From Escherichia phage vB_EcoM_ESCO25: DNA of 64,000 nt. Made by a program: the position numbers and the translations under genes. How positions within the stretch are numbered: position 1 is the stretch's first letter; each line of letters begins with the position of its first letter. Below are positions 4,898 to 63,824 of this stretch, in pieces. The notes beneath the pieces were generated by a model. The model did not search any database, was not told where the DNA came from, and worked only from the letters and a program-made list of their open reading frames with translations. The stretch lies in sequence record OM386656.1; one strand, written 5' to 3'.

Positions 4898-6384
4898 TGG
4901 ATGAATATGGTTTGACAGATGCGGGATTTGTAATCCCTACTTTTGACGATGTTCTAAACAACTATATGACAGCAGTAAAAAATACATTTGGTGCAGATGC
5001 AGCCACTTCGGAAGACACTGTGATCGGGCAACTGTTTAGAATAATTGCATATACAGATTACACATTGTGGGAAGGTATGCAAGGAGTTTATAACACTCAA
5101 ACACTTGATGGTGCAGAAGGTATCTATCTTGACGAAATCTTTTCTAAGCGTGGTTTCTATAGAGCAGGGGCAGCAGCAAGTACAGGTTATGCATATGTTA
5201 AGAGTAATAACAAAGCAGCTTGGACTTATGAGCTAGGCACTGATATTTACTTCAACTCTGACAGTGATATGAACTACTATGTTAGCACACCAACCATGTT
5301 GAATGCTAAGATTGCAGCTTATCAAATATCTCGTGCTAATGCAACTGCTACAGGTGTTCCAAATATTACTTTTTATGCACAAAGTGCGGTAGACGGAGGA
5401 CTAAACAGTAAAACACTTGCCCCTGGTTCTTCTACATTTATAACCGATCTTGAAACTTTTATCAAGGCAAACTTAACAGAAGCTGATCGTAGTCTTGTAT
5501 TTTCTGATTCTGGTAACTTGTCAATTGGTTTTACTTCTTTAACTAGTGAGACTCCAGTTGGACTGGTAACGCCTATCAAATTTTATGCCAGTGTTCCGGT
5601 TGGGACCAAATGGAGTGAGATTCCAGTGGTTGCAGCAGAGAAAGGTTATAATCCGGTGGGTGTAGAGTCCATTACAGGTATCTCATCTACCTTTACAGGT
5701 TATCTGGATAGTGGTAACTTCTATTCGTTTTCTCCTGGTCGAGACGTTGAGACAGACGCAGAATTCCGCTCTCGTTTCAATGACAACGTTGATGAAGCTA
5801 ACGCAGGGACACGAGCAGCTATTGTGAAAGCACTACTGCTTACAGATGGTGTCACTAAGGTGAAGATTTATGATAACCCTACGTTACATGATCAAGAACA
5901 CGCTCCAGCTATGACTTTCCAGACTATAGTTTATGGTGGCAGTGCAGAAGAAATTGCAAATGTTATCTATAAAACCAAACCAATCAACACTTTGACACAC
6001 GGAACAACTAACATAACAGTTACAACAGAAGATGGAGGACAAGAAATTATTCGCTTCTCTCCTGGTGCTTCTGCTATGTATTCCGTAAAACTTGTTTATC
6101 AAACTGTCAACGGAACAACTTTAAGTGGAACAGAAAAACAAAACATCGTAGAAGCTTTACAAAACCTGCAAGCTTACTTTGAGTTAGGTTCTTCAGTAAC
6201 AAACGATCAAATCAAAGGTGTTATTTATGCAGCACTTGCTTTTGGACGCTTGACTTCTCTTCGTGTTTATGTTAAACTTAATACTGAGGATGACAGTAAA
6301 TATACAGAGAATAATATAGTTCCTGCTTATAATGTTGTCCCTTCTTTTGACCTTGATAACATTTCTTACGAGTATGGAGTGTAA
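4897..6384 (+). CDS. baseplate J-like (baseplate wedge) protein
   Basis: 495 aa from ATG 4897 (TAATG overlap with upstream stop, SD AAAGAGGA); N-terminal GLTDAGFVIPTFDDVLNNY resembles baseplate J family (by memory, not searched). Confidence 0.55.
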   Translation: MDEYGLTDAGFVIPTFDDVLNNYMTAVKNTFGADAATSEDTVIGQLFRIIAYTDYTLWEGMQGVYNTQTLDGAEGIYLDEIFSKRGFYRAGAAASTGYAYVKSNNKAAWTYELGTDIYFNSDSDMNYYVSTPTMLNAKIAAYQISRANATATGVPNITFYAQSAVDGGLNSKTLAPGSSTFITDLETFIKANLTEADRSLVFSDSGNLSIGFTSLTSETPVGLVTPIKFYASVPVGTKWSEIPVVAAEKGYNPVGVESITGISSTFTGYLDSGNFYSFSPGRDVETDAEFRSRFNDNVDEANAGTRAAIVKALLLTDGVTKVKIYDNPTLHDQEHAPAMTFQTIVYGGSAEEIANVIYKTKPINTLTHGTTNITVTTEDGGQEIIRFSPGASAMYSVKLVYQTVNGTTLSGTEKQNIVEALQNLQAYFELGSSVTNDQIKGVIYAALAFGRLTSLRVYVKLNTEDDSKYTENNIVPAYNVVPSFDLDNISYEYGV

Positions 6385-29932: not shown

Positions 29933-30535
29933 TTATGGACATTCATACCATTCTTTTTTACCACCGAAGGCCATCACCACATCGCAAATATCCAGACCAG
30001 CTTTACCTACACCATATGCTTTCAGCTTCCATTCTCCATCTTCACGAACCAGGGAAGCCACGTGGCAGATTGTGTTGCCAGCTACTTCAGGAGCCAGGAA
30101 GTCAAAATCCAGAATTTCCACATTGCGCTCGGAGTCGAAGATTTTAAGCATACCTTCAGAAGCATGACCAAAACGTTTCAGACCTGTATCATCATCAATG
30201 GTCAGAACAAAGGCAATCTCTTGTGCATCAGGAGAGATTTTAGCCAGAGTAATATCAATCTGCTCCATGCTGCCAGTTCCATCACGAACATCGTCACCAG
30301 CGAAGGTAGAACGTTCAGGATCAAACTTGTTAGCATAGCAAACCAGATGACGTGCAGACAGCATTTCAGGATTGCCAGCGGCATTGTGACGACAAACCAG
30401 TGCACTTACATCCAGATCCAGTTTAGAATCAGATTTCCAAGAGAATTCCAGACGCAGTTCTTTCAGAGCCGGAGCAACTTTCTTCAGGGAAATTTTTTCG
30501 CTAGAACCTTTTTTCAGGGAAATTTTATCAGTCAT
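29933..30535 (-). CDS. terD: TerD-family protein
   Basis: 200-aa ORF; GDDVRDGTGSMEQIDITL matches TerD acidic signature. Confidence 0.8.
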   Translation of the reverse strand: MTDKISLKKGSSEKISLKKVAPALKELRLEFSWKSDSKLDLDVSALVCRHNAAGNPEMLSARHLVCYANKFDPERSTFAGDDVRDGTGSMEQIDITLAKISPDAQEIAFVLTIDDDTGLKRFGHASEGMLKIFDSERNVEILDFDFLAPEVAGNTICHVASLVREDGEWKLKAYGVGKAGLDICDVVMAFGGKKEWYECP

Positions 30536-30550
30536 CTTTTGTCTCCTCTA

Positions 30551-30820
30551 TTATTTAAGTGTAATACCAGTTACAGTCAATTCTACTTCCAAAAGCTTAG
30601 ATGTGTTTTGGATTGATACTAATTGTGCATGATGGTTTAGTTCTACAGCAGAATAATCATTTTCCCCATCATCTACTTTTAAATAAACAATGATTTCACT
30701 AAGGTCTAAACCATTTTCGTCAAATGCATTTTCATAGACGAAAGTATCTCCTACATCCAAATCTTTAATGGTAAGGCATCGTTTATTTACTTTTTGCTCA
30801 TCAATTTCGAAGTTTAACAC
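30551..30820 (-). CDS. small hypothetical protein, paralog of 31842..32138
   Basis: 89-aa ORF; shares layout and C-terminal ...VTGITLK / ...VTNITLKK with neighbour paralog. Confidence 0.5.
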   Translation of the reverse strand: MLNFEIDEQKVNKRCLTIKDLDVGDTFVYENAFDENGLDLSEIIVYLKVDDGENDYSAVELNHHAQLVSIQNTSKLLEVELTVTGITLK

Positions 30821-31049
30821 TTCTTCCTCCTAATGTTATCTCCGGTTTGTATATACGAAGAATTATAGCATTTTCATTTTCTTTGTCAACCCATTCTTCA
30901 TAATCAGGCCATACATGAATCTCTACTCTACTTACAATATCTTCCATTCGCACAGTCCCAATGAAATACTCTTTGAGACTGCGCATAATGAAAGCTTCTC
31001 TCTCGCGCCAATAATTTTCTATGACTTGAGAGGCAAGCTCGTCGATCAT
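30801..31049 (-). CDS. hypothetical protein
   Basis: 82-aa ORF coupled to flanking genes. Confidence 0.45.
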   Translation of the reverse strand: MIDELASQVIENYWREREAFIMRSLKEYFIGTVRMEDIVSRVEIHVWPDYEEWVDKENENAIILRIYKPEITLGGRSVKLRN

Positions 31050-31840
31050 TTTTTAGCACCTACTTTAACAACCCACTCTCCGAACTCTTCAGATAAGAGT
31101 TTGTCATAAAGCTCTGAATCTGTCAAGTCTAAATCTTTAATGCCAATAAAACCAACATTATCATAAGCATTTGCCAGTTCTTTCAGGAAGCCAAACTTCT
31201 CATTACCAACGCCAACCATGAACCAATAAATAGGTTTATTCTTATTCTCTTCAATAAGACGACGAACAGCACTAGGATCACCATTCTCACCATCCGTCTG
31301 GAAGAATACAACACCAGGGGTAACGTCAGCACCTGGTTCAGACACAGCTACAACCTTTTCACGCTCTACAGATACTGTTTCAGTTTTACCAAGCAGACGA
31401 TTAAAGAAGCCTTTCTTTGGAGCCTCCTCTTGTACCACTTGTTTAGTGGTAATATATTTGGTAACAGTGCCAAAATACTCATCGTAGATATCTGCCATTA
31501 CAGGGGCGTAATTTGTTCCACCTCCGATACGAACATTGCGCATACATTTACCAACATAGTCATCGTAAACGTCTGCTGTTGCTGGAGTAAGCTCTTGGGA
31601 ACTCGTATTGAAGGCCCACATATCAATTTGTTGATTATCGTCGAACAGCATACCAAAAGGAAGCAGTTTACCTACAAAATCACTCACTACCCCACTAGAA
31701 TATAGACCATGCATACTACCAGAAATATCTAGAGCACATGCTACACGAAGAACAATCTTACCTTCATTCAGGTTCTTATTCTTTTTCAGAGAGAAAGCAA
31801 GGTTTTCTTGACGTTTTTTCAGGCTGATTTTCTCGGACAT
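31046..31840 (-). CDS. von Willebrand factor A (vWA) domain protein, Ter-associated
   Basis: 264-aa ORF; MIDAS motif ALDISGSM; N-terminal EKISLKK like TerD N-terminus. Confidence 0.7.
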   Translation of the reverse strand: MSEKISLKKRQENLAFSLKKNKNLNEGKIVLRVACALDISGSMHGLYSSGVVSDFVGKLLPFGMLFDDNQQIDMWAFNTSSQELTPATADVYDDYVGKCMRNVRIGGGTNYAPVMADIYDEYFGTVTKYITTKQVVQEEAPKKGFFNRLLGKTETVSVEREKVVAVSEPGADVTPGVVFFQTDGENGDPSAVRRLIEENKNKPIYWFMVGVGNEKFGFLKELANAYDNVGFIGIKDLDLTDSELYDKLLSEEFGEWVVKVGAKK

Positions 31841-31841
31841 A

Positions 31842-32138
31842 TTATTTCTCCTTCTTAAGTGTAATATTGGTAACTTCTAAATCTACTTCCACCATATTTG
31901 TATCTGGCGGGATGCAATGAGTATAGCCTCGTTGTGCTAGTGATCCATTAATACAGATCGCACTGTTTGTGGAATTTTTAATGAACACCAAGTTACGGTA
32001 GGTATCCAACCCTGCGTCTTCATAGGCATCATAATACATGAATGTGGCCCCTATGCCAAGATCTTCGAAAGCAATAGGTAAATCCTGACACTTTTCTTCT
32101 TGAATATTGAATCTAAACACGCATACCTCCTCTACCAA
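31842..32138 (-). CDS. small hypothetical protein, paralog of 30551..30820
   Basis: 98-aa ORF. Confidence 0.5.
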   Translation of the reverse strand: MVEEVCVFRFNIQEEKCQDLPIAFEDLGIGATFMYYDAYEDAGLDTYRNLVFIKNSTNSAICINGSLAQRGYTHCIPPDTNMVEVDLEVTNITLKKEK

Positions 32139-32676
32139 TTTTGAAGCCCAAATCGTAAGCTTCTTTAGTGATCTTTTGCAACTCGCTTATAGGAAGTGTT
32201 ACAAGAGGATCATCTTCTTCAATTTCCATCTTGTCATCTTCTGTTTCAATGAGAGTATTATGCACTTTATGATAAGGGTTGTCAACACGTTTAAACTTAT
32301 TCTTTTCTGTGCTGAAGAAACAATCTGGATCTTCTTCACCATCACCCCAACCTTGATTAGGATCTCTGTCAGATTGTTCTGTAGGGATCTCACCTGTAAA
32401 GTACTCTTCCAGCACCATAGCGATGCCGTCCCTTGGATTTGAGGAATGCATCAAATCACAAACCTTACTCCAATCCATAGCCCAGTCGAACCGTTCACGA
32501 ACGCCATTTTCATCCTCTTTTCCAGAGAAAACACAACCATAACTATCATAGTTGCCATACATCTCTTCAATAACAACACCGTCCTTCAAAAGAAAGAGGT
32601 AGCAAGGTGATCCGTCGAAAGAAGTAGAAAGGGCAGCTTTGCCCGATTCTTTGCACAAAAAGCTAAAACAACCCAT
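32113..32676 (-). CDS. hypothetical acidic protein
   Basis: 187-aa ORF. Confidence 0.45.
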   Translation of the reverse strand: MGCFSFLCKESGKAALSTSFDGSPCYLFLLKDGVVIEEMYGNYDSYGCVFSGKEDENGVRERFDWAMDWSKVCDLMHSSNPRDGIAMVLEEYFTGEIPTEQSDRDPNQGWGDGEEDPDCFFSTEKNKFKRVDNPYHKVHNTLIETEDDKMEIEEDDPLVTLPISELQKITKEAYDLGFKIGRGGMRV

Positions 32677-32879
32677 TACAAACCCTCCTTCAGATTATCA
32701 AGAGCTACAGTGGTTTCACAAAATTCTCCATAAGCTTTATGATGTTCCAGAAAAGCTTCGGGTCCACCCCAATCATTGTCTTGTGTATTCCAGCCATCAA
32801 TAAAAGCATCTTCAATGATTGTGATCAGTTCTTGTCGGGTTAACTGGATAATATTAGGGTCGTTATCGTAGTTAAACAT
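32676..32879 (-). CDS. hypothetical protein
   Basis: 67-aa ORF. Confidence 0.45.
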   Translation of the reverse strand: MFNYDNDPNIIQLTRQELITIIEDAFIDGWNTQDNDWGGPEAFLEHHKAYGEFCETTVALDNLKEGL

Positions 32880-33045
32880 CCTCTTCCTCCTCTAAAATAT
32901 GGAACCCGTAATTACAATAGTCCTGAAAGGTTTCGTGTGCAAGATCTTCTATATCCTCTTGAGACATATCATCTTCAATTTCGATATCCACAACCTCATT
33001 GCATCCACACCAAGCAGTTTCAATATTCACTCGTAATATTTTCAT
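32872..33045 (-). CDS. small acidic hypothetical protein (57 aa)
   Basis: ORF below track cutoff filling the gap; stop overlaps next start. Confidence 0.35.
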   Translation of the reverse strand: MKILRVNIETAWCGCNEVVDIEIEDDMSQEDIEDLAHETFQDYCNYGFHILEEEEDV

Positions 33046-33242
33046 TACTCCTCCTCCTCATTGAAGTCAATATCTGCAAGGAGTTCGAATTTACGGAAGT
33101 TACGACAACCTTCATAAATATAACAATCACGACAAACTGCTAGAACACTTGGGGGATATATGCCTCCCATCGGCGCGAATCGTTTTTCGTCATCATAACG
33201 GACACCAATGTCCTCATCAATTATATAGATACGGATTCTCAT
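33045..33242 (-). CDS. hypothetical protein
   Basis: 65-aa ORF with Cys pair. Confidence 0.45.
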   Translation of the reverse strand: MRIRIYIIDEDIGVRYDDEKRFAPMGGIYPPSVLAVCRDCYIYEGCRNFRKFELLADIDFNEEEE

Positions 33243-34351
33243 TTACCAAGCCCTCGTTTCACAGCAGCTACCATCCCGTCTTCCAAAGATTGAACTTCAT
33301 TAATATAATCAACACGAGCAGCACGGGCTTCCGTATTGATGCGGTTAGTTTCTTCCAACATCTTAACCAAGTTTTCCTGATCGTGACGCAGAGTTTCAAT
33401 ATCCAACACTTGACGGTTAGCCAGTGCTGCTGCTTCGATCTGATTCTGTGTGGCAAGATCGCTACCCAGTTTAATTGCCAGGTTAAATTCATCAAGAACG
33501 TTATTCTGCGTCTCTGCTGCTTTCATTTGACGTAAGCTCTCGATATACATTGAGAAGTTAGCAGAGTAAGCAGGAATAACATTATTTACTATGTTACGCG
33601 CAGATCGCATTAAGCTTGCAGAAACTTTTTGCATACCTTGTACACGCGGTCCCATTTGGACACACAGTAGGCGCAATGCTTTTAAATCTGCAATACGAAT
33701 CTCCAGAAGATCCAAAGTATCTCGGATCACTTGTCGCTGTTCTACTGCATCTTCTGGAAGAGCAGCCAAAGCTTGTTCTTCTTTTTCATAGGTTGCTGTT
33801 AGAAGCTGCATATCTCGGTTCAAACTTGCAGCATATTGTCCAATAGCTTGATGTAGCTTTTCAAGATATACCAAGGAATCTTCTTCTTTGCGAATATCCA
33901 TTTGAAGGTTTTTTACCAACTCTTCAATACGGTTATTAACATTATCAAACTCCCCAAACAGATCTTCTTTCATACCCATAACTTTTTTAATGAGTTTAGT
34001 AATACCCTTGCTTTGTTTAATAGAGTTTGGATCAAGTTGTTTTGCCTGTTTAATCAAAGCTGTGAGTCGTTCACTCATCTGATCGCCTTGATTACTACGT
34101 TGATGTTTTAATACCTCGGCATTCAAGGAACGCAAGGTTGTTCCTGCCTCTGCCCCAATCTCTTCGATCTCCTGTCGGGTCATAGAAGGCAAAACTGGAA
34201 CTTCTTGCGGTGCCGCTGGTGCATAAACAGGACTGGCATCTAACACGCTTGGAGCGAATACAGATTTACTTGCATCTGTTGTTGCAGCAAATACGCTCAT
34301 TTCAGGTTTCTTCTGACAGCCAGTAGCTGCTTTTAAAAATGGACTTGTCAT
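33239..34351 (-). CDS. telA: TelA-like (toxic anion resistance) protein
   Basis: 370-aa helical/coiled-coil ORF; family assignment by resemblance and Ter-cluster context. Confidence 0.55.
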   Translation of the reverse strand: MTSPFLKAATGCQKKPEMSVFAATTDASKSVFAPSVLDASPVYAPAAPQEVPVLPSMTRQEIEEIGAEAGTTLRSLNAEVLKHQRSNQGDQMSERLTALIKQAKQLDPNSIKQSKGITKLIKKVMGMKEDLFGEFDNVNNRIEELVKNLQMDIRKEEDSLVYLEKLHQAIGQYAASLNRDMQLLTATYEKEEQALAALPEDAVEQRQVIRDTLDLLEIRIADLKALRLLCVQMGPRVQGMQKVSASLMRSARNIVNNVIPAYSANFSMYIESLRQMKAAETQNNVLDEFNLAIKLGSDLATQNQIEAAALANRQVLDIETLRHDQENLVKMLEETNRINTEARAARVDYINEVQSLEDGMVAAVKRGLGK

Positions 34352-34938
34352 TCTTCATTCTCCTCTTCTGCATCTCTTATATATGGTGAAACACCGTACT
34401 CTTTAGCTACTTTAACCCAATCGTCCCATTTATACAACCATAATTTTCCTTCGGTCCCTTCTTTATCTGATTTCAACCACATATTAGGTTGCTTACCTGG
34501 GTACATGCGATTAGGTTTACGATTATAACCTCTAACACATCTTGTCGCAAACCTATCTACCAGAACAAGAACATATTTATATTCGTGGTTCAACGGCTCT
34601 TTGGAAGTGGCTTTAGGATTAGCCCCTAACTCTGCTGCCAGTTTTTGCCAATGAGCACCGTGTCTACTAAACTTACCCATACAACCATCAATAGCATGAG
34701 CAATTTCGTGCTTCATTGTATCCACGATCATATCTCTTGTAGAGTTCTTATGCAAGTGCCAATTTACAACAACAATTTTATCTCGGTAGTTGCACCAACC
34801 GAAAGAGTTATTCACTTTGTTTCTAACACAAGCTTTATATCCTGCTTCACGTAACATGTTGTAGTAAACAGGAAAATCTTCTTTTATTTCCTGCATCACT
34901 TCCCACCACAAGAGTTGCAAGTCTCTCTCGGTATACAT
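34348..34938 (-). CDS. SprT-like zinc metallopeptidase
   Basis: 196-aa ORF with HEIAHAIDG HExxH motif and downstream HGAHW. Confidence 0.55.
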   Translation of the reverse strand: MYTERDLQLLWWEVMQEIKEDFPVYYNMLREAGYKACVRNKVNNSFGWCNYRDKIVVVNWHLHKNSTRDMIVDTMKHEIAHAIDGCMGKFSRHGAHWQKLAAELGANPKATSKEPLNHEYKYVLVLVDRFATRCVRGYNRKPNRMYPGKQPNMWLKSDKEGTEGKLWLYKWDDWVKVAKEYGVSPYIRDAEEENEE

Positions 34939-34941
34939 AAC

Positions 34942-35535
34942 TTACACCTTAAAAGTGAAATGCGTGGTCGTGGTTTCAAAATCAGGACCAGATAAACGTG
35001 CACTGAAATCTGAAATATTTGTAATTAAAAAGCTTTTATGCATACCTAACACAGCTACGCTTTCAATATCTTCTACTAACATTTCAATCATGTTAGAAAC
35101 ATGGCTGAACGTAGAGTTTTGTTTTTTGATGGTGTAGAAAGAAAGATTCCCACCTGCTGTATAAGATACCTCTTCAAAATCTTTAATGGTATATTGTGTG
35201 CCATCAGTAAAGAAAATGGTAGCTTTATTAGTAGCACGTTTCTTGTTTTTTGGTCCTTTTTTACGTTTACTGCGAGTAGGCAAACCGTTTGGGAACACCA
35301 TAGCTACAAATTCTTCAGCAGAAACCTCCTTACCGAAATCATAACCATAAGAAACAGCGTCTATAAACTCGTCATCTTCATTTTTAAAATAATGGAAATA
35401 GGGCCAATTTGAAAGATTATCAAGCATCTTATGCTCGTCCACAGCAGAGAATGTATCCCTCAAAGCGCGTGTGATTTGCAAAGCATTAGGCAACCTTTTA
35501 ACACCTACGATGGAAGTACGAATAGAAATTGTCAT
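34942..35535 (-). CDS. hypothetical protein
   Basis: 197-aa ORF. Confidence 0.5.
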   Translation of the reverse strand: MTISIRTSIVGVKRLPNALQITRALRDTFSAVDEHKMLDNLSNWPYFHYFKNEDDEFIDAVSYGYDFGKEVSAEEFVAMVFPNGLPTRSKRKKGPKNKKRATNKATIFFTDGTQYTIKDFEEVSYTAGGNLSFYTIKKQNSTFSHVSNMIEMLVEDIESVAVLGMHKSFLITNISDFSARLSGPDFETTTTHFTFKV

Positions 35536-35549
35536 TGTTTTTCTCCTTA

Positions 35550-35987
35550 TTAACGTCGCTTGCTACGAGATGAACTCTTTTTACTTAAAGGGCTATTGTA
35601 AGATTTACGAGTTGTATAGCTACTATTTGTTTTAAAAGTTTGTCTCGGCTTTTCATAAGTTTTTATCTCTTGTTTAGGCTTACTATAAAAATTAGTTTTC
35701 GGTTTAGGTGTATTATAATGCTTATTAATAATCGTTCTGTTATCGTTATAATCCCCACTGCTACGATTACTACCGCCACTCATCATATGCCCTAACAACA
35801 TACCTGTAGCAAACTCACCAACACCGCTACTACTAGAACCGCCACCATTGTTGATAATAGTTGTATCTCCGTCAGATCCTTGTTGAGCGTATTGTTGAGG
35901 AGGTTGTTGGTATTGTGCAGGATTTGTCTCATCCTCGCAAGCTGTTAAAAAGATACAACCAATTAAAATCAGGGCTAGTTTTTTCAT
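35550..35987 (-). CDS. lipoprotein (lipobox LTAC), Gln/Gly/Ser-rich with basic C-terminus
   Basis: Start moved to ATG 35987 (SD GAGGA); MKKLALILIGCIFLTAC signal peptide. Confidence 0.6.
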   Translation of the reverse strand: MKKLALILIGCIFLTACEDETNPAQYQQPPQQYAQQGSDGDTTIINNGGGSSSSGVGEFATGMLLGHMMSGGSNRSSGDYNDNRTIINKHYNTPKPKTNFYSKPKQEIKTYEKPRQTFKTNSSYTTRKSYNSPLSKKSSSRSKRR

Positions 35988-36174
35988 ATTTGCTTTCCTC
36001 GTTTTGGCTATTAATACATCTGTGTTTGAAATCTCCAGAGAAGCAATAAAGTTGCTCTCCATCTCGGTATAAACTCACTTTACTGCCGTTGATTACGCTT
36101 GTCAATACAAAAATTACAACAAACAACCCTATTGCAAAACAAATATTTTCAAACACAACCAACAAGTATTTCAT
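35929..36174 (-). CDS. small membrane protein (uncertain)
   Basis: 81-aa ORF with hydrophobic N-terminus; overlaps lipoprotein start by about 59 nt. Confidence 0.35.
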   Translation of the reverse strand: MKYLLVVFENICFAIGLFVVIFVLTSVINGSKVSLYRDGEQLYCFSGDFKHRCINSQNEESKYEKTSPDFNWLYLFNSLRG

Positions 36175-36521
36175 TTTAAAAATACCTCATCATCAGTTTC
36201 ATTATCCCAGAAGAACAAGTCCCAACCATTCGGATCATTCCATTTAGCTGCTGGAGAAGTCCATATTTGCTCGATATCAATATTCAAAACTTCACCGTTT
36301 CGTTTTGAAACAGCTTTAGTTAATTCCCAACGGGATACAGGCTCCACTTCCCCTGAACCACTCCCACAACAAGCTACCACATTAGGAGGCAAATTAATTG
36401 GATCTTTGGTCACGATCATAACGCTTACCCCAGGGTAAACTTTTGAAAGATAATCTAAAACGTAATCCACATCACCAGATAAATCCCAAACAAGTTCTTG
36501 AATTTCATCAAAATTACTCAT
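36171..36521 (-). CDS. hypothetical protein
   Basis: 116-aa ORF after terminator hairpin, SD TAGGAGAG. Confidence 0.5.
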   Translation of the reverse strand: MSNFDEIQELVWDLSGDVDYVLDYLSKVYPGVSVMIVTKDPINLPPNVVACCGSGSGEVEPVSRWELTKAVSKRNGEVLNIDIEQIWTSPAAKWNDPNGWDLFFWDNETDDEVFLK

Positions 36522-36532
36522 AAGTCTCTCCT

Positions 36533-36558
36533 ATAAAATAGCCTCCCGAAGGAGGCTC
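36533..36558 (-). terminator. rho-independent terminator after terC
   Basis: On - strand AGCCUCC-UUCG-GGAGGCU then AUUUUAUAG. Confidence 0.6.
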
Positions 36559-36563
36559 ATTTA

Positions 36564-37538
36564 TTAAACAGTAGCTTCTTCTTTTTCAGGGAAGATAAAG
36601 CTTGCAATAACACCAAGAGATAATGTGCCTAGAACAATCATCAGACTTACGTTAGGGGAAATATCATGCGGGAGGAATGACCACTTGGCATGAAGTGTTT
36701 CACCGAACGGGTGATACATAAGTTTAGCACCAACAAACACCAGAACCACAGCAACAGCTTTCTCTAAGTGAACCAGATATTTCACAGCTACACTTAACAC
36801 AAAGAAAAGTGCACGTAAACCAAGAACAGCCATCAGCATTGCAGAATAAACTAGCAGAGGTTCTTGTGTCACACCGATCACAGCCGGAACTGAATCAAAA
36901 GAGAAGACAATATCTGTAAGCTCAATAACAAACACACAAAGAAGAGCAGGAGTTGCATATTTAATACCATTCTTAATGGTGATGAACTTTTCACCATCCA
37001 GTGCATTGTGCACAGGCAGAACTTTACCTACTAAACGAACAGCCCAATGTTTAGAGTAATCAATATCCTCTTCTTTGTCACCACCTTTGATGATAGCCAC
37101 GGCAGACCAAGCTACAATCAAACCGAACAACACTTGGACCGACCAATGAAGGTTAAACAAAGCGGTCCCTGCTGCAACAAAAATACCTCGGAAGACAATG
37201 GCTCCTGCAATCCCCCAAAGTAGAATCTTATGTTGGAGATGTGTGCTCTTAATTCCAAAGCTTGCAAAAATTGCCATGAACACCATTAGGTTATCTACAG
37301 AAAGACTCTTTTCCAACACATAGCCACTTAGGAAAAGCGCGGCAAACTCTTTACCATGTTCTACCCAAATGAATGCGTAATACCCTAAAGCTAAAGCAAT
37401 CCAAAAAACAGACCAAAGCAAAGCAGATTTAATTCCAATTTCTTTATTCTCTTTATGACCAAAGAAATCGATACCAATAGACAATGCTAAAATACCAACT
37501 AAAACAACTACATCAATAATTGGGAAACCGAGTTGCAT
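36564..37538 (-). CDS. terC: TerC-family integral membrane protein
   Basis: 324-aa polytopic ORF with LEKSLSVDNLMVF motif; own promoter-hairpin unit upstream. Confidence 0.8.
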   Translation of the reverse strand: MQLGFPIIDVVVLVGILALSIGIDFFGHKENKEIGIKSALLWSVFWIALALGYYAFIWVEHGKEFAALFLSGYVLEKSLSVDNLMVFMAIFASFGIKSTHLQHKILLWGIAGAIVFRGIFVAAGTALFNLHWSVQVLFGLIVAWSAVAIIKGGDKEEDIDYSKHWAVRLVGKVLPVHNALDGEKFITIKNGIKYATPALLCVFVIELTDIVFSFDSVPAVIGVTQEPLLVYSAMLMAVLGLRALFFVLSVAVKYLVHLEKAVAVVLVFVGAKLMYHPFGETLHAKWSFLPHDISPNVSLMIVLGTLSLGVIASFIFPEKEEATV

Positions 37539-37555
37539 TCTTTTCTCCTCTCTTT

Positions 37556-37614
37556 GCGGGGAACTATTCCCCGCTTCATGTGATATATCTTACTCTTTTT
37601 AAGAACTATGTCAA
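37556..37614 (-). promoter_or_regulatory. promoter plus 5' stem-loop unit driving terC (same family as right-end array)
   Basis: On - strand TTGACA, 16-nt spacer, TAAGAT, 12 nt, then GCGGGGAA-TAG-TTCCCCGC, then SD AGAGAGGAG and terC ATG. Confidence 0.6.
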
Positions 37615-37617
37615 CAC

Positions 37618-37839
37618 TTATTTTGTTGAATGAGAGGAAAAGATTCCTCGTAATACCGCCAAAATAAACGAAACACAAACCACGGTCCAGAAGGTTACTG
37701 GGACAGTGATATCTGCATGACCCATAACTTCAGCAACATAGTTGTAAGCCAGCAACAGTAACCAAGCTGGAATCAAACTAAGCATAAAAGCAATAACAAA
37801 AAAGCTTACCACTGCAACAATACCTGCAAAAACACCCAT
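37618..37839 (-). CDS. small membrane protein (two TM helices)
   Basis: 73-aa hydrophobic ORF, SD AAGAGGAG. Confidence 0.5.
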   Translation of the reverse strand: MGVFAGIVAVVSFFVIAFMLSLIPAWLLLLAYNYVAEVMGHADITVPVTFWTVVCVSFILAVLRGIFSSHSTK

Positions 37840-37851
37840 ACTAATCTCCTC

Positions 37852-38325
37852 TTAAAGTTTATAAATAGTCACATCGTGACCTGTTTTTACTAAAGTTTCT
37901 TCAATCATCACTTGGATGATAGCCCAATTACCTCCGGCATGTCCCGCTCCAATCATAGGTAAACCGATCTTACATTTTTGGTCACGGAGAAGCAAATCAT
38001 TAGCCATAGCTATTAGTGCATCGTAAAGTGCATCATAGTCCAACTGACGACCTTTAGCATTGTATCCGTAACGGTATTGCCCGTATAGATTATATACCAA
38101 AGGGTCTGATTGTTCGTCTGGCACCCCTAAACTAAAAGAACCTAACTTACTTTGATCACCAGCCATTGTGTCTAAATCTGCCGCATATGCATAAGGGAAT
38201 GCTCGTTTAATTTGCGGAGCAATTCCTGCTCCCATATTACACATACAATTGCAACAATGAGCAATAACAGTTACTTCACCTGCTTTAGCGGCATCAATAA
38301 GATTACCTGTTTTCATTTTAAGCAT
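37852..38325 (-). CDS. macro-domain protein (ADP-ribose binding/hydrolase-like)
   Basis: Start moved to ATG 38325 (SD AAGGAG); TGNLIDAAKAGEVTVIAHCCNCMCNMGAGIA and IGLPMIGAGHAGG parallel macro-domain motifs. Confidence 0.6.
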   Translation of the reverse strand: MLKMKTGNLIDAAKAGEVTVIAHCCNCMCNMGAGIAPQIKRAFPYAYAADLDTMAGDQSKLGSFSLGVPDEQSDPLVYNLYGQYRYGYNAKGRQLDYDALYDALIAMANDLLLRDQKCKIGLPMIGAGHAGGNWAIIQVMIEETLVKTGHDVTIYKL

Positions 38326-38338
38326 TTTTAGCTCCTTA

Positions 38339-39166
38339 TTACAGAATGTGTTGTTTTGTGTAACGATCCAAGAATTCAAAGTTTTCAGCATACTTTGAAA
38401 TTCGGTTGTAACCTTCTCCCAAACATCCGAAGAAAAGTTGCTCTACATAGTAGTGTGGCAATTGGCTAAGAATGATTTTGAAGTCTTCGTGATTTTGGCC
38501 CATAAGATACTTAATAGGACGAACAAGACACTGTGCATCACGTTCTTCATTAATCATTTTAACAAACGCTTCTGGTGTATTGATGTAGTTAAAATTCAGT
38601 TTAGCTTCAGTATCTGCTTGATTACCTTCATATTTTGCAAAATACAAGAAGTAAACATCATTTTTAACTTGATTTTCATCAAGAATCTCAATCAGTTTGT
38701 CTTCATGAGTTCCGGTGATATTTACATCATCAATGAACACAAGCTTCTTATCACCCCAGAATTCTTTGTTGCAGTAGAATGTATCCCCATCAATAAGTTT
38801 CTTACGACTAGCTTTATCCAAGAAACCATAATCGTTGATATAGCTAACTTTACGATGAATAATATCCAGTTCTGCTGAACGACCTTGATCATATTGTGCT
38901 TGCAACATATTAAAGTAATTAATAAAATGATCTGTCATCATTGTTGCAGCATTGTGCACATGGTTATAAGGAGAAGGGATGATAACAAATTGTTCCCCAA
39001 TATGTTTCATTGCCACTTGAGCAAAAAACTGAAGTACCAATTCTTTACCCATACGACGCGCAGCTTGGTTACTACCAAATTTCAATTTTGAATAGTCTTT
39101 GATATCAAAAGTAGCAGTTTCCAGGTCATCAAATTTATTTGCAAAAATTTGAGTTTGATTACGCAT
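38339..39166 (-). CDS. phosphoribosyltransferase-like protein (Ter-associated PRTase)
   Basis: 275-aa ORF; KLVFIDDVNITGTH resembles PRPP-binding motif. Confidence 0.5.
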   Translation of the reverse strand: MRNQTQIFANKFDDLETATFDIKDYSKLKFGSNQAARRMGKELVLQFFAQVAMKHIGEQFVIIPSPYNHVHNAATMMTDHFINYFNMLQAQYDQGRSAELDIIHRKVSYINDYGFLDKASRKKLIDGDTFYCNKEFWGDKKLVFIDDVNITGTHEDKLIEILDENQVKNDVYFLYFAKYEGNQADTEAKLNFNYINTPEAFVKMINEERDAQCLVRPIKYLMGQNHEDFKIILSQLPHYYVEQLFFGCLGEGYNRISKYAENFEFLDRYTKQHIL

Positions 39167-39815
39167 TTACAATTTCTCCTCTTTTAAGTTTCTCTAGTAA
39201 GTCGTTAGGGTTCTTAATATGACAGAAGTTAATCCCTATGTCAACACATTTACCATCAAATTCTTCGCTGTCCCCAACATGTAAAATCTCTTCAGCCTTC
39301 AAAGGAATGCTTGAATATGTGGCGGTCCTAACAAAGAATCTAGGATCTGGTTTACATAACAGATGTTCGTCTGAAAAATGCATAAATTCAAAACAATTCC
39401 AACTGTCGAACATACAAGCACGACGCAAAATATCCCCAGATATAAAATTAGTATTGCTTTTAATACTAAGATCATATTTACCAGACAAGTATAGCAAACA
39501 AACTGGCAAATCTAAAGCGATATGTGGAGGAAATTTAAGAAACCATTGCTCACACTCAAAACGCATTTGTGCAGATTCTACAGGGGTTAAACCTATCTTT
39601 CTTCCCAACATATTCCATGCATATGCTACACCTTCTGCACACCCATTTAGTGCAGCATTATCCATAATTTCTTTGGCATCTTTATATGCTTCTTTTGCCG
39701 CACGTTCAGACATTCTACCATATGTAGCAATAGTGTGCGTACGTGCATCTGCATAGTTTTGATTGGCAGAAATAAGAGTATTCCATACATCAAAAGAAAT
39801 ATGTTTTATTGTCAT
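39159..39815 (-). CDS. HAD-superfamily-like hydrolase (atypical motif I)
   Basis: Start moved to ATG 39815; HISFDVWNTL is non-canonical motif I; C-terminal VGDSEEFDG like HAD motif IV. Confidence 0.4.
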   Translation of the reverse strand: MTIKHISFDVWNTLISANQNYADARTHTIATYGRMSERAAKEAYKDAKEIMDNAALNGCAEGVAYAWNMLGRKIGLTPVESAQMRFECEQWFLKFPPHIALDLPVCLLYLSGKYDLSIKSNTNFISGDILRRACMFDSWNCFEFMHFSDEHLLCKPDPRFFVRTATYSSIPLKAEEILHVGDSEEFDGKCVDIGINFCHIKNPNDLLEKLKRGEIVNA

Positions 39816-39816
39816 A

Positions 39817-40422
39817 CTAGGCCCACCACGCATCAAGATTTAAGTTACTGTCTACCACAACTTGTTCTATGTGGTAGCCTTTTATCTGTATCCCACTGTT
39901 CAAGAGCATATCATATGCTTCATTGAAACGCAACTTATCTTCTGCGGAATATAAGCGAGCATTGTAAAATCGGTAATCAAGTTCTTCAGCATTAGAAGAA
40001 ATACGGAAGAAGTTTGTTTCTACTTCAGGATCACTTGCTGAAGTTTTAATGTGAACTTCTCCGTAATTTTCTTTGCTTAGATCCATGAAAAGAACACAGG
40101 CAACATGTTTAAACATTCGTTCCAGTTTGTAACGAACAACATTGAAACCTGCGTTCTCAAGTTTTTCTACACATTGCAACATTAACGTAGTGTCGAGATC
40201 GCTTTGATACTTTGTTAACATACGATCACGTTGAGACTTTGTATCCCGATGTAAATCAATTGTTGTGCATTTGGCACCAATGATCTTAGCTGCTTTCATC
40301 AACTCTTCAGAACTAACGTTAGATAAAGTAAGATGAAAATGGGCTTTCCACACTTTTTTAGCAGGGACACCAAAAGATTTATCCCCACTATTCGGCATGT
40401 TGACTACTACACTATGTTGCAT
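39817..40422 (-). CDS. hypothetical protein
   Basis: 201-aa ORF. Confidence 0.5.
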   Translation of the reverse strand: MQHSVVVNMPNSGDKSFGVPAKKVWKAHFHLTLSNVSSEELMKAAKIIGAKCTTIDLHRDTKSQRDRMLTKYQSDLDTTLMLQCVEKLENAGFNVVRYKLERMFKHVACVLFMDLSKENYGEVHIKTSASDPEVETNFFRISSNAEELDYRFYNARLYSAEDKLRFNEAYDMLLNSGIQIKGYHIEQVVVDSNLNLDAWWA

Positions 40423-51892: not shown

Positions 51893-51922
51893 TTGTTTTC
51901 TCCTCTTGTTTTGTATGAGTTG

Positions 51923-51981
51923 ATCTTAACAGGACTAAAAAGCATGTCAATACTTGATCTGAAATTATTTTCAGGTATCAT
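51923..51981. promoter_or_regulatory. divergent promoter region between - and + strand gene blocks
   Basis: - strand TTGACA (51945-51950) 16 nt TAAGAT (51923-51928); + strand TTGATC (51954-51959) 16 nt TATCAT (51976-51981). Confidence 0.45.
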
Positions 51982-58790: not shown

Positions 58791-59009
58791 GCGCAGGGGC
58801 GGTGTTTGTCTCGCGCTCCCGTGTCCCCTCGCCATGTAATAAGAATAACAGATCCAGCCAGGAAAGCAAGCGATTATTTTATCTTTACATTTCTTTACAA
58901 ATATATAGCACCCAGCCTACCGGCGATCAACCTTCCAACCAGTGCCCCCTGGTATGTTAGCCCCGCCTTTACGCCGTGGGGTGGCGCTTCCTCTTCTGTA
59001 TGTAAAACA

Positions 59010-59036
59010 GTATAAGCCCGATCCCTGGGCTTGTCA
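59010..59036 (-). terminator. hairpin downstream of - strand gene 59040..59306
   Basis: AAGCCC-(7 nt)-GGGCTT inverted repeat; T-rich flank on both strands. Confidence 0.4.
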
Positions 59037-59039
59037 AGA

Positions 59040-59306
59040 TTATTTTTTGTTTTCTTGCCAGGATAGGACACCTAACCAAAAATACATATCGCCCCGCGCC
59101 CCTGGTGGTATCTTGCTTTCCCCGCCGCCACTGCAAGCCCATAGATAACCATTTGCGAACGTATCAAAATGATCTATCTCTTCCACCTTATGATCGCCCA
59201 GGTTGAGAACGGTTTCAACCTTTAAGCCCGTTGCGCTTGCTACCTGGTGCACCGTGCCGCCTTGCCAGCCCAATGAGTGCATAAGGTGTAATGTAGTATT
59301 TGTCAT
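59040..59306 (-). CDS. hypothetical protein in GC-richer right segment
   Basis: 88-aa ORF with GC-rich codon choice; own promoter plus 5' hairpin; SD AAGGG. Confidence 0.5.
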   Translation of the reverse strand: MTNTTLHLMHSLGWQGGTVHQVASATGLKVETVLNLGDHKVEEIDHFDTFANGYLWACSGGGESKIPPGARGDMYFWLGVLSWQENKK

Positions 59307-59414: not shown

Positions 59415-59473
59415 TTGACGTTAACCAGGCGGCGGCGTAGTATTCATCTTGTAGGGCGGCAATGGTGCCGCTC
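59415..59473 (+). promoter_or_regulatory. promoter-hairpin unit 1 (hairpin type A)
   Basis: TTGACG 59415-59420, 17-nt spacer, TAGTAT 59438-59443, 10 nt, GGGCGGC-AATGGT-GCCGCTC 59454-59473. Confidence 0.6.
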
Positions 59474-59690: not shown

Positions 59691-59697
59691 AAACTAT

Positions 59698-59756
59698 TGA
59701 CAACAAACAACAACCTGATAAGATGTATCACATAGGGCGGGAAGTGGTTTCCCGCT
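59698..59756 (+). promoter_or_regulatory. promoter-hairpin unit 2 (hairpin type B)
   Basis: TTGACA 59698-59703, 16-nt spacer, TAAGAT 59720-59725, linker GTATCACATAGG, GCGGGAA-GTGGT-TTCCCGC 59738-59756. Confidence 0.6.
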
Positions 59757-59780
59757 CGTAACAGAAGAGAGATTATCATC

Positions 59781-60056: not shown

Positions 60057-60111
60057 TTGACATTAACGAATAATTTGTTAATATGTTACATAAAGCGGGA
60101 ATAGTTCCCGC
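60057..60111 (+). promoter_or_regulatory. promoter-hairpin unit 3 (hairpin type B)
   Basis: TTGACA 60057-60062, 16-nt spacer, TAATAT 60079-60084, then GCGGGAA-TAG-TTCCCGC 60095-60111. Confidence 0.6.
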
Positions 60112-60129
60112 TATTTGTAAGGTGGTAGA

Positions 60130-60388: not shown

Positions 60389-60946
60389 ATGGGCCGCGAA
60401 TATGTGATCCAGTCTTGGGTAAAACATGAAGCAGATGATCCGCGCATCATTCCCGATCATCTTATCGATGAATCCACGGGATATAGCGGTGAGCAAATAG
60501 GTAACAGATTAGCACGTAGTAACGGCAACGTAAAAGCGCGTTATGTGCGCCCTGGTTGGCTGGCAAATGGTAACGCTGATTTATCCAGTGCGGAAGATGC
60601 GAGCGACGGCGCGAAAGATAATCCTTTGTACAAAGTTGATCCGGCTTTTCGTGTCCTGGATGAATACCCCAGCAAGATAGCGGCGCTCGATCAGGCCCTG
60701 GAAAGTAAGCGCATCACCTGGACCGCTTACAACATGGCAAAAAACGTACTTGATGGTAAATTGATTCAAGCTGAAAGAAAATTAGCCAAAATTGCAGCCA
60801 TAGCCCAGGAGGAAGACGAGGAGACAACGGAAGAGGAAGAGTACGAAGAGATCCCGCCGTTGTTGTGTGTTGATGCTTTTCCTGATTATCAGCCGACAGA
60901 GGAAGAAAAAAGGATCGCACTAGAAAACTTTGAAAATAGTCTTTGA
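60389..60946 (+). CDS. hypothetical protein with highly acidic C-terminal region
   Basis: ATG 60389; C-terminal EEDEETTEEEEYEEIPP tract. Confidence 0.5.
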   Translation: MGREYVIQSWVKHEADDPRIIPDHLIDESTGYSGEQIGNRLARSNGNVKARYVRPGWLANGNADLSSAEDASDGAKDNPLYKVDPAFRVLDEYPSKIAALDQALESKRITWTAYNMAKNVLDGKLIQAERKLAKIAAIAQEEDEETTEEEEYEEIPPLLCVDAFPDYQPTEEEKRIALENFENSL

Positions 60947-61001
60947 CATATCGCCGCCACTGGCATAATATTTACCACGTAGGGCGGCAATGGTGCCGCT
61001 C
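60943..61001 (+). promoter_or_regulatory. promoter-hairpin unit 4 (hairpin type A)
   Basis: TTGACA 60943-60948, 17-nt spacer, TAATAT 60966-60971, 10 nt, GGGCGGC-AATGGT-GCCGCTC 60982-61001. Confidence 0.6.
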
Positions 61002-61132: not shown

Positions 61133-61193
61133 TTGACAACGTTTTTTAATCTGATAAGATGTATCACATAGGGCGGCGGAATACTTCCCCGCC
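61133..61193 (+). promoter_or_regulatory. promoter-hairpin unit 5 (hairpin type C, bulged)
   Basis: TTGACA 61133-61138, 16-nt spacer, TAAGAT 61155-61160, linker GTATCACATA, GGCGGCGGAA-TAC-TTCCCCGCC 61172-61193. Confidence 0.6.
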
Positions 61194-61582: not shown

Positions 61583-61639
61583 TTGACACTGTTTAAAATT
61601 CTGGTATAGTTTATCACGTAGGGCGGCAATGGTGCCGCC
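61583..61639 (+). promoter_or_regulatory. promoter-hairpin unit 6 (hairpin type A)
   Basis: TTGACA 61583-61588, 16-nt spacer, TATAGT 61605-61610, 10 nt, GGGCGGC-AATGGT-GCCGCC 61621-61639. Confidence 0.6.
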
Positions 61640-61858: not shown

Positions 61859-61910
61859 TTGACAATGAGTGATAGTATAAGCATAATAACTTTTATCGGG
61901 AATACTTCCC
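61859..61910 (+). promoter_or_regulatory. promoter-hairpin unit 7 (degenerate hairpin)
   Basis: TTGACA 61859-61864, 17-nt spacer, CATAAT 61882-61887, then weak GGGAA-TAC-TTCCC 61898-61910. Confidence 0.5.
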
Positions 61911-62308: not shown

Positions 62309-62371
62309 TTGACAGCACGAATAAAAAGAGTAAACTGTATTACATCAAGGCGGCGGAATGGTCCACCGCCT
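62309..62371 (+). promoter_or_regulatory. promoter-hairpin unit 8 (hairpin type C)
   Basis: TTGACA 62309-62314, 16-nt spacer, TAAACT 62331-62336, linker GTATTACATCA, AGGCGGCGG-AATGGT-CCACCGCCT 62348-62371. Confidence 0.6.
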
Positions 62372-62565: not shown

Positions 62566-62603
62566 TTGACTTTTCGTTATAGCGCCTTATAATGGGCGCT
62601 ATA
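62566..62603 (+). promoter_or_regulatory. promoter unit 9 with inverted repeat enclosing the -10 box
   Basis: TTGACT 62566-62571, 16-nt spacer, consensus TATAAT 62588-62593; 9-bp arms TATAGCGCC (62578-62586) and GGCGCTATA (62595-62603) flank the -10. Confidence 0.6.
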
Positions 62604-62636
62604 GAGAAGAGAAACCACTACTAACAAGGAAACATC

Positions 62637-62858
62637 ATGATCACTTTCGCTATTGTCGCCGTTGTCGCTGGTCAGGTTTACATAAACGATACATTCACCA
62701 CAGAAGACAAGGCCGCAGGAGACATAACCGCCGTTTACAATGAGTGCAAGGCAGTAGAAAGGATGTTAGCGCCTTGTATGCTAATGAGTGAACGCCAGGA
62801 CGGGATAACAGTATTTACTAACATTGAAACAGGGTACCAAATGGTAGTAACAAAATAA
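62637..62858 (+). CDS. small early-region protein with hydrophobic N-terminus
   Basis: 73-aa ORF after promoter with palindrome around -10. Confidence 0.5.
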   Translation: MITFAIVAVVAGQVYINDTFTTEDKAAGDITAVYNECKAVERMLAPCMLMSERQDGITVFTNIETGYQMVVTK

Positions 62859-62861
62859 AGC

Positions 62862-62918
62862 TTGACACGGATTTAATTTTTAGTAAACTGTTACACGTAG
62901 GGCGGGAATAGTTCCCGC
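62862..62918 (+). promoter_or_regulatory. promoter-hairpin unit 10 (hairpin type B)
   Basis: TTGACA 62862-62867, 16-nt spacer, TAAACT 62884-62889, linker GTTACACGTAGG, GCGGGAA-TAG-TTCCCGC 62902-62918. Confidence 0.6.
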
Positions 62919-62937
62919 TCAAAAAGAGAGAAAGACC

Positions 62938-63297: not shown

Positions 63298-63351
63298 TTG
63301 ACAATTTTACAAAACAGTTTAAATTAACAATATAGCGGCAATGGTGCCGCT
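63298..63351 (+). promoter_or_regulatory. promoter-hairpin unit 11 (hairpin type A variant)
   Basis: TTGACA 63298-63303, about 16-nt spacer, TAAATT-like -10, then AGCGGC-AATGGT-GCCGCT 63334-63351. Confidence 0.55.
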
Positions 63352-63765: not shown

Positions 63766-63824
63766 TTGACACCATAACCGGACCTGTTAAACTGTATTAC
63801 ATCAGGCGGGGAATAGTTCCCACC
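63766..63824 (+). promoter_or_regulatory. promoter-hairpin unit 12 (hairpin type B variant)
   Basis: TTGACA 63766-63771, 16-nt spacer, TAAACT 63788-63793, linker GTATTACATCA, GGCGGGGAA-TAG-TTCCCACC 63805-63824. Confidence 0.55.

Follow-up and report, generated by a model that had tools for sequence, protein, structure and literature searches.

Among described elements, the closest to the one reported here are the promoter-early stem-loops (PeSLs) of the T4-like phages RB49/phi1, T4/PST, and KVP40/nt-1 (Arbiol et al. 2010, PMC2839356; Comeau et al. 2014, PMC4122927). In RB49/phi1, recombination crossovers were mapped between the −10 hexamer and the ATG (PMC2839356; PMC4122927). One phi1 PeSL stem-loop lowered lacZ expression in the manner of rrnB T1, and a role as a terminator was proposed (PMC2839356). 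A second relevant system is found in the Vequintavirinae, in which the Certrevirus phages CB7 and CR3 have sigma-70-like early promoters, consisting of an A-tract and TTGAC, that are clustered in a block of short ORFs; a few copies stand near replication or nucleotide-metabolism genes (PMC7344957). Sigma-70-like promoters in small-ORF blocks have also been described for rV5, with no hairpin. In Escherichia coli itself, RNase E- and RppH-dependent decay is slower when the 5′ end of the mRNA is paired (PMC3997798, refs 92–95), and 5′ stem-loops stabilize the ompA and papA mRNAs (Emory, Bouvet, and Belasco 1992, as cited in PMC3997798). For the Stephanstirmvirinae, the subject of this work, our literature searches returned no transcript mapping or expression data.

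We analyzed a stretch of 64,000 nucleotides from Escherichia phage vB_EcoM_ESCO25 (record OM386656.1), referred to here as the window. Its terC region is 99.9% identical to that of ESCO13 and relatives (Phapecoctavirus, Stephanstirmvirinae), which are phAPEC8-like myoviruses of ~150 kb. In this region, identities of 80–99% to E. coli phapecoctaviruses are also found for three records labeled Campylobacter phage B15, Acinetobacter phage vB_AbaM_ABPW7, and Pseudomonas phage PsgM04F, whose host labels may be unreliable. At the right end of the window, 11 promoter–leader units lie on the plus strand between 59415 and 63824 (the array), and a unit of the same layout precedes terC on the minus strand (Table 1).

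The units share with the PeSLs an A/T-rich tract, a near-consensus sigma-70 promoter, a G...C-rich stem-loop, a Shine–Dalgarno sequence, and an ATG, all in one cassette. As with the PeSLs, the copies in the array stand in front of numerous small ORFs in a plastic region, and recombination between units yields cassette indels; a PeSL subclass with the stem downstream of −10 is like the units described here (PMC2839356). Unlike in the PeSLs, the position of the stem is uniform and is predicted to be inside the transcript, and the stems are without terminator features by sequence criteria. The phage is a Stephanstirmvirinae myovirus rather than a T4-like phage, and the relationship is one of analogy rather than of demonstrated common descent. 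A further difference is that the terC unit stands alone, before a conserved 324-aa gene in a block of replication and metabolism genes. The Certrevirus promoters also differ from these units in that no leader hairpin was described for them (PMC7344957).

Parts of the terC unit and of the array have been annotated before. In the phAPEC8 record JX561091, a “putative host dependent promoter” found with MEME stands before terC and is the orthologue of the promoter in the window, and 20-mers of the array hairpins (L012:8257-8276, 5713-5732) are labeled “putative promoter determined with PHIRE”. In contrast to our assignment, the 20-mer was there taken as a phage promoter, no stem-loop was noted, and the terC leader was not linked to the array motif. 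In the Paula record LR865361 (L007:1528-1549), the terC hairpin is labeled a terminator, on the opposite strand. By analogy, the terC unit is a PeSL-like cassette in a new phage group, the promoter itself having already been annotated in phAPEC8.

Results and Discussion

From the −35 hexamer to the leader, the terC unit lies, on the minus strand, in the 79-nt spacer between a 73-aa ORF (stop codon 37618–37620) and terC. The initial annotation had given terC its own promoter, with TTGACA, 16 nt, TAAGAT, a hairpin, a Shine–Dalgarno sequence, and the ATG in succession, and all of these elements are found where it had placed them on the minus strand. Its account of the architecture is accurate except that the 12 nt between the −10 hexamer and the stem went unmentioned. 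The A-rich tract 5′ of the promoter is a possible UP-like element, and similar AAAA(T)A tracts occupy the same place relative to −35 in the array units. From spacing alone, terC transcription is predicted to start at ~37579–37581, with a leader of only ~42 nt. When a start 7–8 nt past the −10 hexamer is assumed, the stem begins 0–5 nt from the 5′ end in 12/12 units, the distance for terC being 5 nt.

Folding of the terC hairpin gives −13.1 kcal/mol (z = −4.0), and the unit hairpins overall range from −11 to −15 kcal/mol, with z = −3.5 to −5.4. The 17-nt spacer from stem to ATG is 65% A and has no U, and its Shine–Dalgarno sequence is unpaired in the centroid fold; in the ESCO13 record, a ribosome-binding site is annotated at the place equivalent to AGGAG. 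Across the units, the stem ends 11–26 nt before the ATG (most commonly 17 nt), and the leader is mostly A-rich. The region of the predicted terC start, ACAUGAAG (37508–37579, minus strand), also contains an AUG at or near +1 that opens a 23-codon ORF out of the terC frame. A leaderless small ORF beginning at this AUG, in the context cACAUGAAG, was considered; the AUG is present in phAPEC8 and missing in phi92, so its occurrence is probably due to chance.

Table 1. Features of the terC locus and the right-end array of the window, with the terC hairpins of orthologous loci
Feature	Positions	Strand	Sequence	Remarks
A-rich tract	37617–37626	−	ACAAAATAAG	Directly 5′ of −35; includes stop codon of 73-aa ORF
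−35 hexamer	37609–37614	−	TTGACA	Invariant in array units; kept in terC orthologues
−10 hexamer	37587–37592	−	TAAGAT	16 nt past −35; same as −10 of units 59697 and 61133
Discriminator and initial transcribed region	37575–37586	−	ATATCACATGAA	12 nt; fits array motif (G/T)TATCACrTA
5′-leader hairpin, window terC	37556–37574	−	GCGGGGAATAGTTCCCCGC = GCGGGGAA-TAG-TTCCCCGC	Perfect 8 bp, 3-nt loop
A-rich leader	37539–37555	−	AAAGAGAGGAGAAAAGA	Shine–Dalgarno AGGAG at 37545–37549
terC coding sequence	36564–37538	−		324 aa, ATG at 37538; TerC-family membrane protein
Terminator-like UUCG hairpin	36533–36557	−	AGCCTCCTTCGGGAGGCT + ATTTTAT	6 nt past terC stop codon; weak T tract
Array unit	59415–59473	+	GGGCGGCA-ATGG-TGCCGCTC	Type B hairpin
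Array unit	59697–59757	+		
Array unit	60057–60112	+	AGCGGGAA-TAG-TTCCCGCT	Type A hairpin
Array unit	60943–61001	+		
Array unit	61133–61193	+		Stem bulged
Array unit	61583–61639	+		
Array unit	61859–61910	+		Degenerate, 5-bp stem; E = 0.57 (refined covariance model)
Array unit	62309–62370	+		Chimera of two ESCO13 units; 950-bp indel junction
Array unit	62862–62920	+		
Array unit	63298–63351	+		
Array unit	63766–63824	+	GCGGGGAATAGTTCCCACC	Hairpin closest to terC hairpin
terC hairpin, phAPEC8			GCGGGGAG-TGG-TTCCCCGC	
terC hairpin, phi92			GCGGAGGA-TTG-TCCTCCGC	
terC hairpin, Klebsiella phage KP13-26 and IMG/VR L014			AGAGGGAG-ATAGG-CTCCCTCT	
terC hairpin, IMG/VR L013			AGGGAGAG-ATAGG-CTCTCCCT	

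The hairpin upstream of terC had also been assigned to the same family as those of the array. When up to three mismatches are allowed, the terC 19-mer has one other site, in the array at 63806–63824, and none is expected by chance. A covariance model was built from 8 array units, with terC excluded, and was used to search both strands of the window and of the complete genome of ESCO13 (214 kb in all). Plain MAFFT/RNAalifold treatment of 12 units left the stems, which differ in length, out of register and recovered 4 pairs; an N-padded hand alignment was used instead, giving a first model (R1) and, after realignment, a second (R2). With the array-only model, the terC site scores 35.1 bits (E = 3.7e-5). 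The remaining significant matches all lie within the array (ESCO13 139.05–148.5 kb), and the terC unit is the sole significant match outside it in the complete ESCO13 genome. The refined model agrees; its next non-array matches, with E of at least 0.2, are the hairpin-less promoters 51950 and 30885. A chance match of the terC unit to the array is ruled out by the 19-mer count together with the covariance-model score, and the terC unit is a true member of the array family, as the initial annotation held.

The hexamers by themselves are less informative. Sigma-70-like hexamer pairs are not enriched around terC (17 seen versus 23.5 expected), and the significance of the terC unit therefore comes from the composite and its conservation. 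Promoters of the same type also occur in the window with no leader hairpin. One of these, TTGACA-16-TAAGAT (51922–51950, minus strand), heads a long leftward gene block, and another, TTGACA-16-TATAAT (30858–30885, minus strand), precedes a small ORF and a TerE/TerD-like gene. The promoter alone is therefore no mark of an array-specific class.

The window and ESCO13 together have about 23 distinct units, the array family precedes ~two dozen small ORFs, and the array promoters match 9–11/12 hexamer positions. Paralogous units within one genome are 94% paired and fall into two main stem types, with a GCG...CGC core that never varies. The arrays of phi92 and Klebsiella phage KP13-26 have the two stem types of the window, GCGGGAA(A)...(T)TTCCCGC and GGGCGGCA...TGCCGC, and the array stems GCGGGAA/TTCCCGC and GGCGGCA/TGCCGCC are nearly invariant over three genera (Phapecoctavirus, Justusliebigvirus, and the Klebsiella relatives). 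Structural selection alone does not explain this near-invariance, which hints at sequence-specific recognition or at homogenization by recombination. In phi92 (L019:13771-14113; record 148270-148612), the small-ORF array stops ~1.1 kb short of the right direct terminal repeat that is annotated there. This location at a physical end of the genome fits, without proving, an early class, to which we infer that the array genes belong.

Within the array, the units are recombination junctions. Window unit 62309 combines the 5′ half of ESCO13 unit 141944 (L004:41944) with the 3′ half of ESCO13 unit 142894 (L004:42894). The crossover falls in a shared 17-nt sequence, AGTAAACTGTATTACAT, between the −10 hexamer and the stem, and it is at this unit that the window and ESCO13 differ by a 950-bp indel of three small ORFs. 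The right-hand 4.7 kb of the window matches the ESCO13 group, and for most relatives the match is in 2–7 separate pieces.

Two other promoter–stem arrangements were noticed at the right end. At 62566–62640 (plus strand), a unit of another kind, TTGACT-16-TATAAT, carries its −10 hexamer within the loop that a 9-bp stem, TATAGCGCC/GGCGCTATA, closes. A nearly identical unit is present in Klebsiella phage KP13-26 (L018:7277-7349), and the arrangement is like the PeSL subclass with a stem around −10. At 59009–59037 (minus strand), a leftward promoter, TTGACA-17-TATACT, with a stem AAGCCC...GGGCTT between −35 and −10, lies upstream of the single minus-strand ORF 59040–59306 at the left edge of the array.

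The single-copy terC unit was compared among orthologues by aligning 9 terC leaders from three Stephanstirmvirinae lineages: those of the window, phAPEC8, phi92, 4 IMG/VR contigs, and 2 Klebsiella phages, the four IMG/VR loci having been obtained with a single-protein query. The leaders align without gaps from the −35 hexamer to the ATG, and the promoter, the distances, the Shine–Dalgarno sequence, and the pairing of the stem are all kept. The sequence of the stem is not; five different stems are found among the 9 orthologues, in which 7 core pairs are paired in 9/9, and both sides have changed at 5/9 pairs. The covariation score of the stem is 0.525 versus 0.239 for shuffles (0/500 reach 0.525), and slid registers give 0.08–0.19. 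On the evidence of this covariation, the terC hairpin is under selection for structure, not sequence. Wobble pairs in the stems, read on the sense strand, comprise 11 G·U versus 1 A·C, which favors sense-strand RNA over a DNA palindrome. The loops of the units vary (TAG, TGG, TTG, ATAGG, and ATGG), which argues against a protein that reads the loop.

In phi92 and the Klebsiella phages, the terC hairpin has kept its structure and lost the array sequence, whereas their own arrays keep the GCGGGAA...TTCCCGC type. The identity between terC and array hairpins is closest in Phapecoctavirus, and the Klebsiella terC unit is single-copy within its own genome. Concerted evolution of the terC and array hairpins within each genome was considered and is not seen in phi92 or KP13-26. 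The only constraint under which the terC stem evolves is structural. Because the array sequence has been lost from the phi92 and Klebsiella terC hairpins, it is unlikely that terC and the array are co-regulated by a factor recognizing the sequence of the array hairpins, and a generic structural role for the terC hairpin fits better. The relative FBKp34 has terC without any unit, so the promoter–hairpin module is dispensable.

Known RNA elements were also sought. No Rfam family reaches its gathering score anywhere in the window, and the best matches within 37300–37900 have E = 0.35 or worse and belong to unrelated families. Bacterial TerC-family genes, alx among them, are often preceded by the yybP-ykoY Mn2+ riboswitch. 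The terC leader of the window, with only ~42 nt, gives no Rfam match to this riboswitch. In its sequence, the hairpin is likewise unlike a lambda-type nut (boxA/boxB) site; the loops vary, and before the stem only the promoter discriminator is conserved.

The gene downstream of the unit encodes a protein that matches the Pfam family TerC (PF03741) with 138 bits (E = 3e-40). It is 71% identical to phi92 gp182, and the macro-domain gene is 49% identical between the window and phi92. The UUCG hairpin that comes after terC is kept in phAPEC8, phi92 (AAGCCCCTTCGGGGGCTT), and two IMG/VR relatives, its stem being AGCCTCC/GGAGGCT in the window and AGCCCC/GGGGCT in phi92. Because this conserved hairpin follows the gene, terC has the appearance of an autonomous cassette, and it looks self-contained: promoter, hairpin, A-rich leader, Shine–Dalgarno sequence, ORF, and UUCG terminator. 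The small ORFs that adjoin the promoter-to-terminator segment are, on both sides, non-homologous between the window and phi92, and nucleotide homology with phi92 starts at window position 37602, within the spacer of the terC promoter. The lone unit sits 22 kb from the array in a conserved block of replication and metabolism genes, and the small ORFs flanking it are variable. No terminator lies between the upstream genes and terC, and transcripts of the leftward operon therefore probably continue into terC as well. A Ter-associated gene set (TerE/TerD-like, 370-aa “tellurite resistance”, PRTase_3 (PF15610), HAD hydrolase, and macro-domain proteins) occupies ~30000–40000 on the minus strand around terC and bears a likeness to bacterial ter stress-response neighborhoods.

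Our preferred explanation, in which we place middling confidence, is that a 5′-terminal leader hairpin stabilizes or insulates transcripts made by the host polymerase from strong early promoters, and that the units double as recombination linkers. Unmodified host RNA polymerase would transcribe terC from the start of infection, as it would the array genes. The hairpin would then act as RNA, at the very start of the terC transcript and preceded by ~3–5 unpaired nt. In this position it would hinder 5′-end-dependent decay (RppH/RNase E) and would keep the surroundings of the ribosome-binding site open and constant. The units would also provide short homologies for the gain and loss of gene cassettes.

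The proposed arrangement resembles that of ompA and papA in that a stable hairpin a few nt from the predicted 5′ end is followed by an open ribosome-binding site, and in that structure, not sequence, is conserved, as seen in the terC orthologues. It differs from them in that the 5′ end is here a prediction and in that the element, joined to a promoter of a specific type, is repeated about 25 times in one genome. Should transcription start further upstream, the single-stranded 5′ segment, which in terC is already predicted to be 5 nt, may be longer than protection allows. Counting against a purely stabilizing function are the near-invariance of the array stems, the lack of a hairpin at other strong promoters of the phage, and the lack of the unit at terC of FBKp34.

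The initial annotation had further suggested that terC is co-regulated with the early array. What stands of this suggestion is that terC and the array share a leader design and a class of promoter, namely the host sigma-70 type, near consensus and preceded by an A-rich tract. It is qualified by the likely read-through into terC, the same promoters without hairpins elsewhere, and the divergence of the terC hairpins in phi92 and the Klebsiella phages. Co-regulation of terC with the array is plausible but unproven.

A different function is conceivable in which a phage-encoded regulator binds the hairpin, either in the RNA or in the DNA (as a palindrome at ~+3 to +22), and so switches the whole early class, including terC, off or on. 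Candidates for such a role would be a repressor of translation, a factor that targets the mRNA for decay, a repressor acting at an operator, or a nut/put-like modifier of the polymerase. The near-invariance of the array stems across Phapecoctavirus, Justusliebigvirus, and the Klebsiella relatives is what such a site would predict, the terC hairpin of the window carries the array sequence, and the palindrome would overlap the promoter region covered by RNA polymerase. However, the terC orthologues swap the stem sequence entirely with pairing kept, the loops are not conserved, and there is no Rfam match. Moreover, G·U pairs are confined to the sense orientation, and in many units the DNA is therefore no true palindrome. 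We consider a regulator site unlikely.

Somewhat lower still do we rate the possibility that the units are only mobile linkers, or portable promoters, for the shuffling of cassettes, and that the terC unit is a footprint of recombination or gene conversion whose hairpin has no terC-specific role. The exact chimera at the three-ORF indel is the behavior expected of such linkers, for which the PeSLs provide a precedent (PMC2839356, PMC4122927). At terC, the homology with phi92 begins within the promoter spacer, and the flanking small ORFs are unrelated between the genera. Nevertheless, a mere scar would decay, and the compensatory changes that the terC stem has undergone in several lineages show that the structure is selected at this locus. 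Linker activity is compatible with, and not exclusive of, the stabilizing hairpin that we favor.

No U tract follows any of the unit hairpins; the tails are A-rich, and the terminator scan, which does call genuine terminator-like hairpins nearby, makes no sense-strand call for any unit. An intrinsic terminator at the terC hairpin was rejected on the same grounds, the tail being AAAGAGAG in the sense direction and TTCATGTG on the opposite strand, neither of which is called. That the stem-loop is a terminator or attenuator insulating terC from upstream read-through, as the phi1 lacZ result (PMC2839356) and the Paula label (albeit on the opposite strand) might suggest, is very improbable, given that the stem is followed by AAAGAGAGG and that an efficient terminator downstream of the terC promoter would stop terC transcripts too.

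Conclusions

These results correct the annotation of the element in related phages, in that the PHIRE “promoters” and the opposite-strand “terminator” are the same leader hairpin. They also make terC a clean natural experiment. It is a conserved, single-copy gene, and its orthologues reveal that the stem is selected as a structure, which the repeated copies of the array cannot do. The more far-reaching proposal, that the units are a subfamily-wide marker of an early regulon read by a phage factor (such as an RNA-binding protein for shut-off or antitermination) and/or actively mobile promoter cassettes, is a long shot in our estimation. If it were true, terC would be a single metabolic or membrane gene recruited into the immediate-early program, and TerC would have an early role in host takeover, perhaps by way of metal or membrane homeostasis or by counteracting defenses of the Ter type.

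The model of a stabilizing leader hairpin predicts that terC is made immediately after infection, and the promoter, 5′ hairpin, and leader together offer a compact part with which mRNA stabilization during phage infection could be tested. With the analogy drawn here, the PeSL idea of a portable promoter and stem-loop that serves both as an early drive and as a recombination linker would extend to unrelated large coliphages that are used in therapy cocktails.
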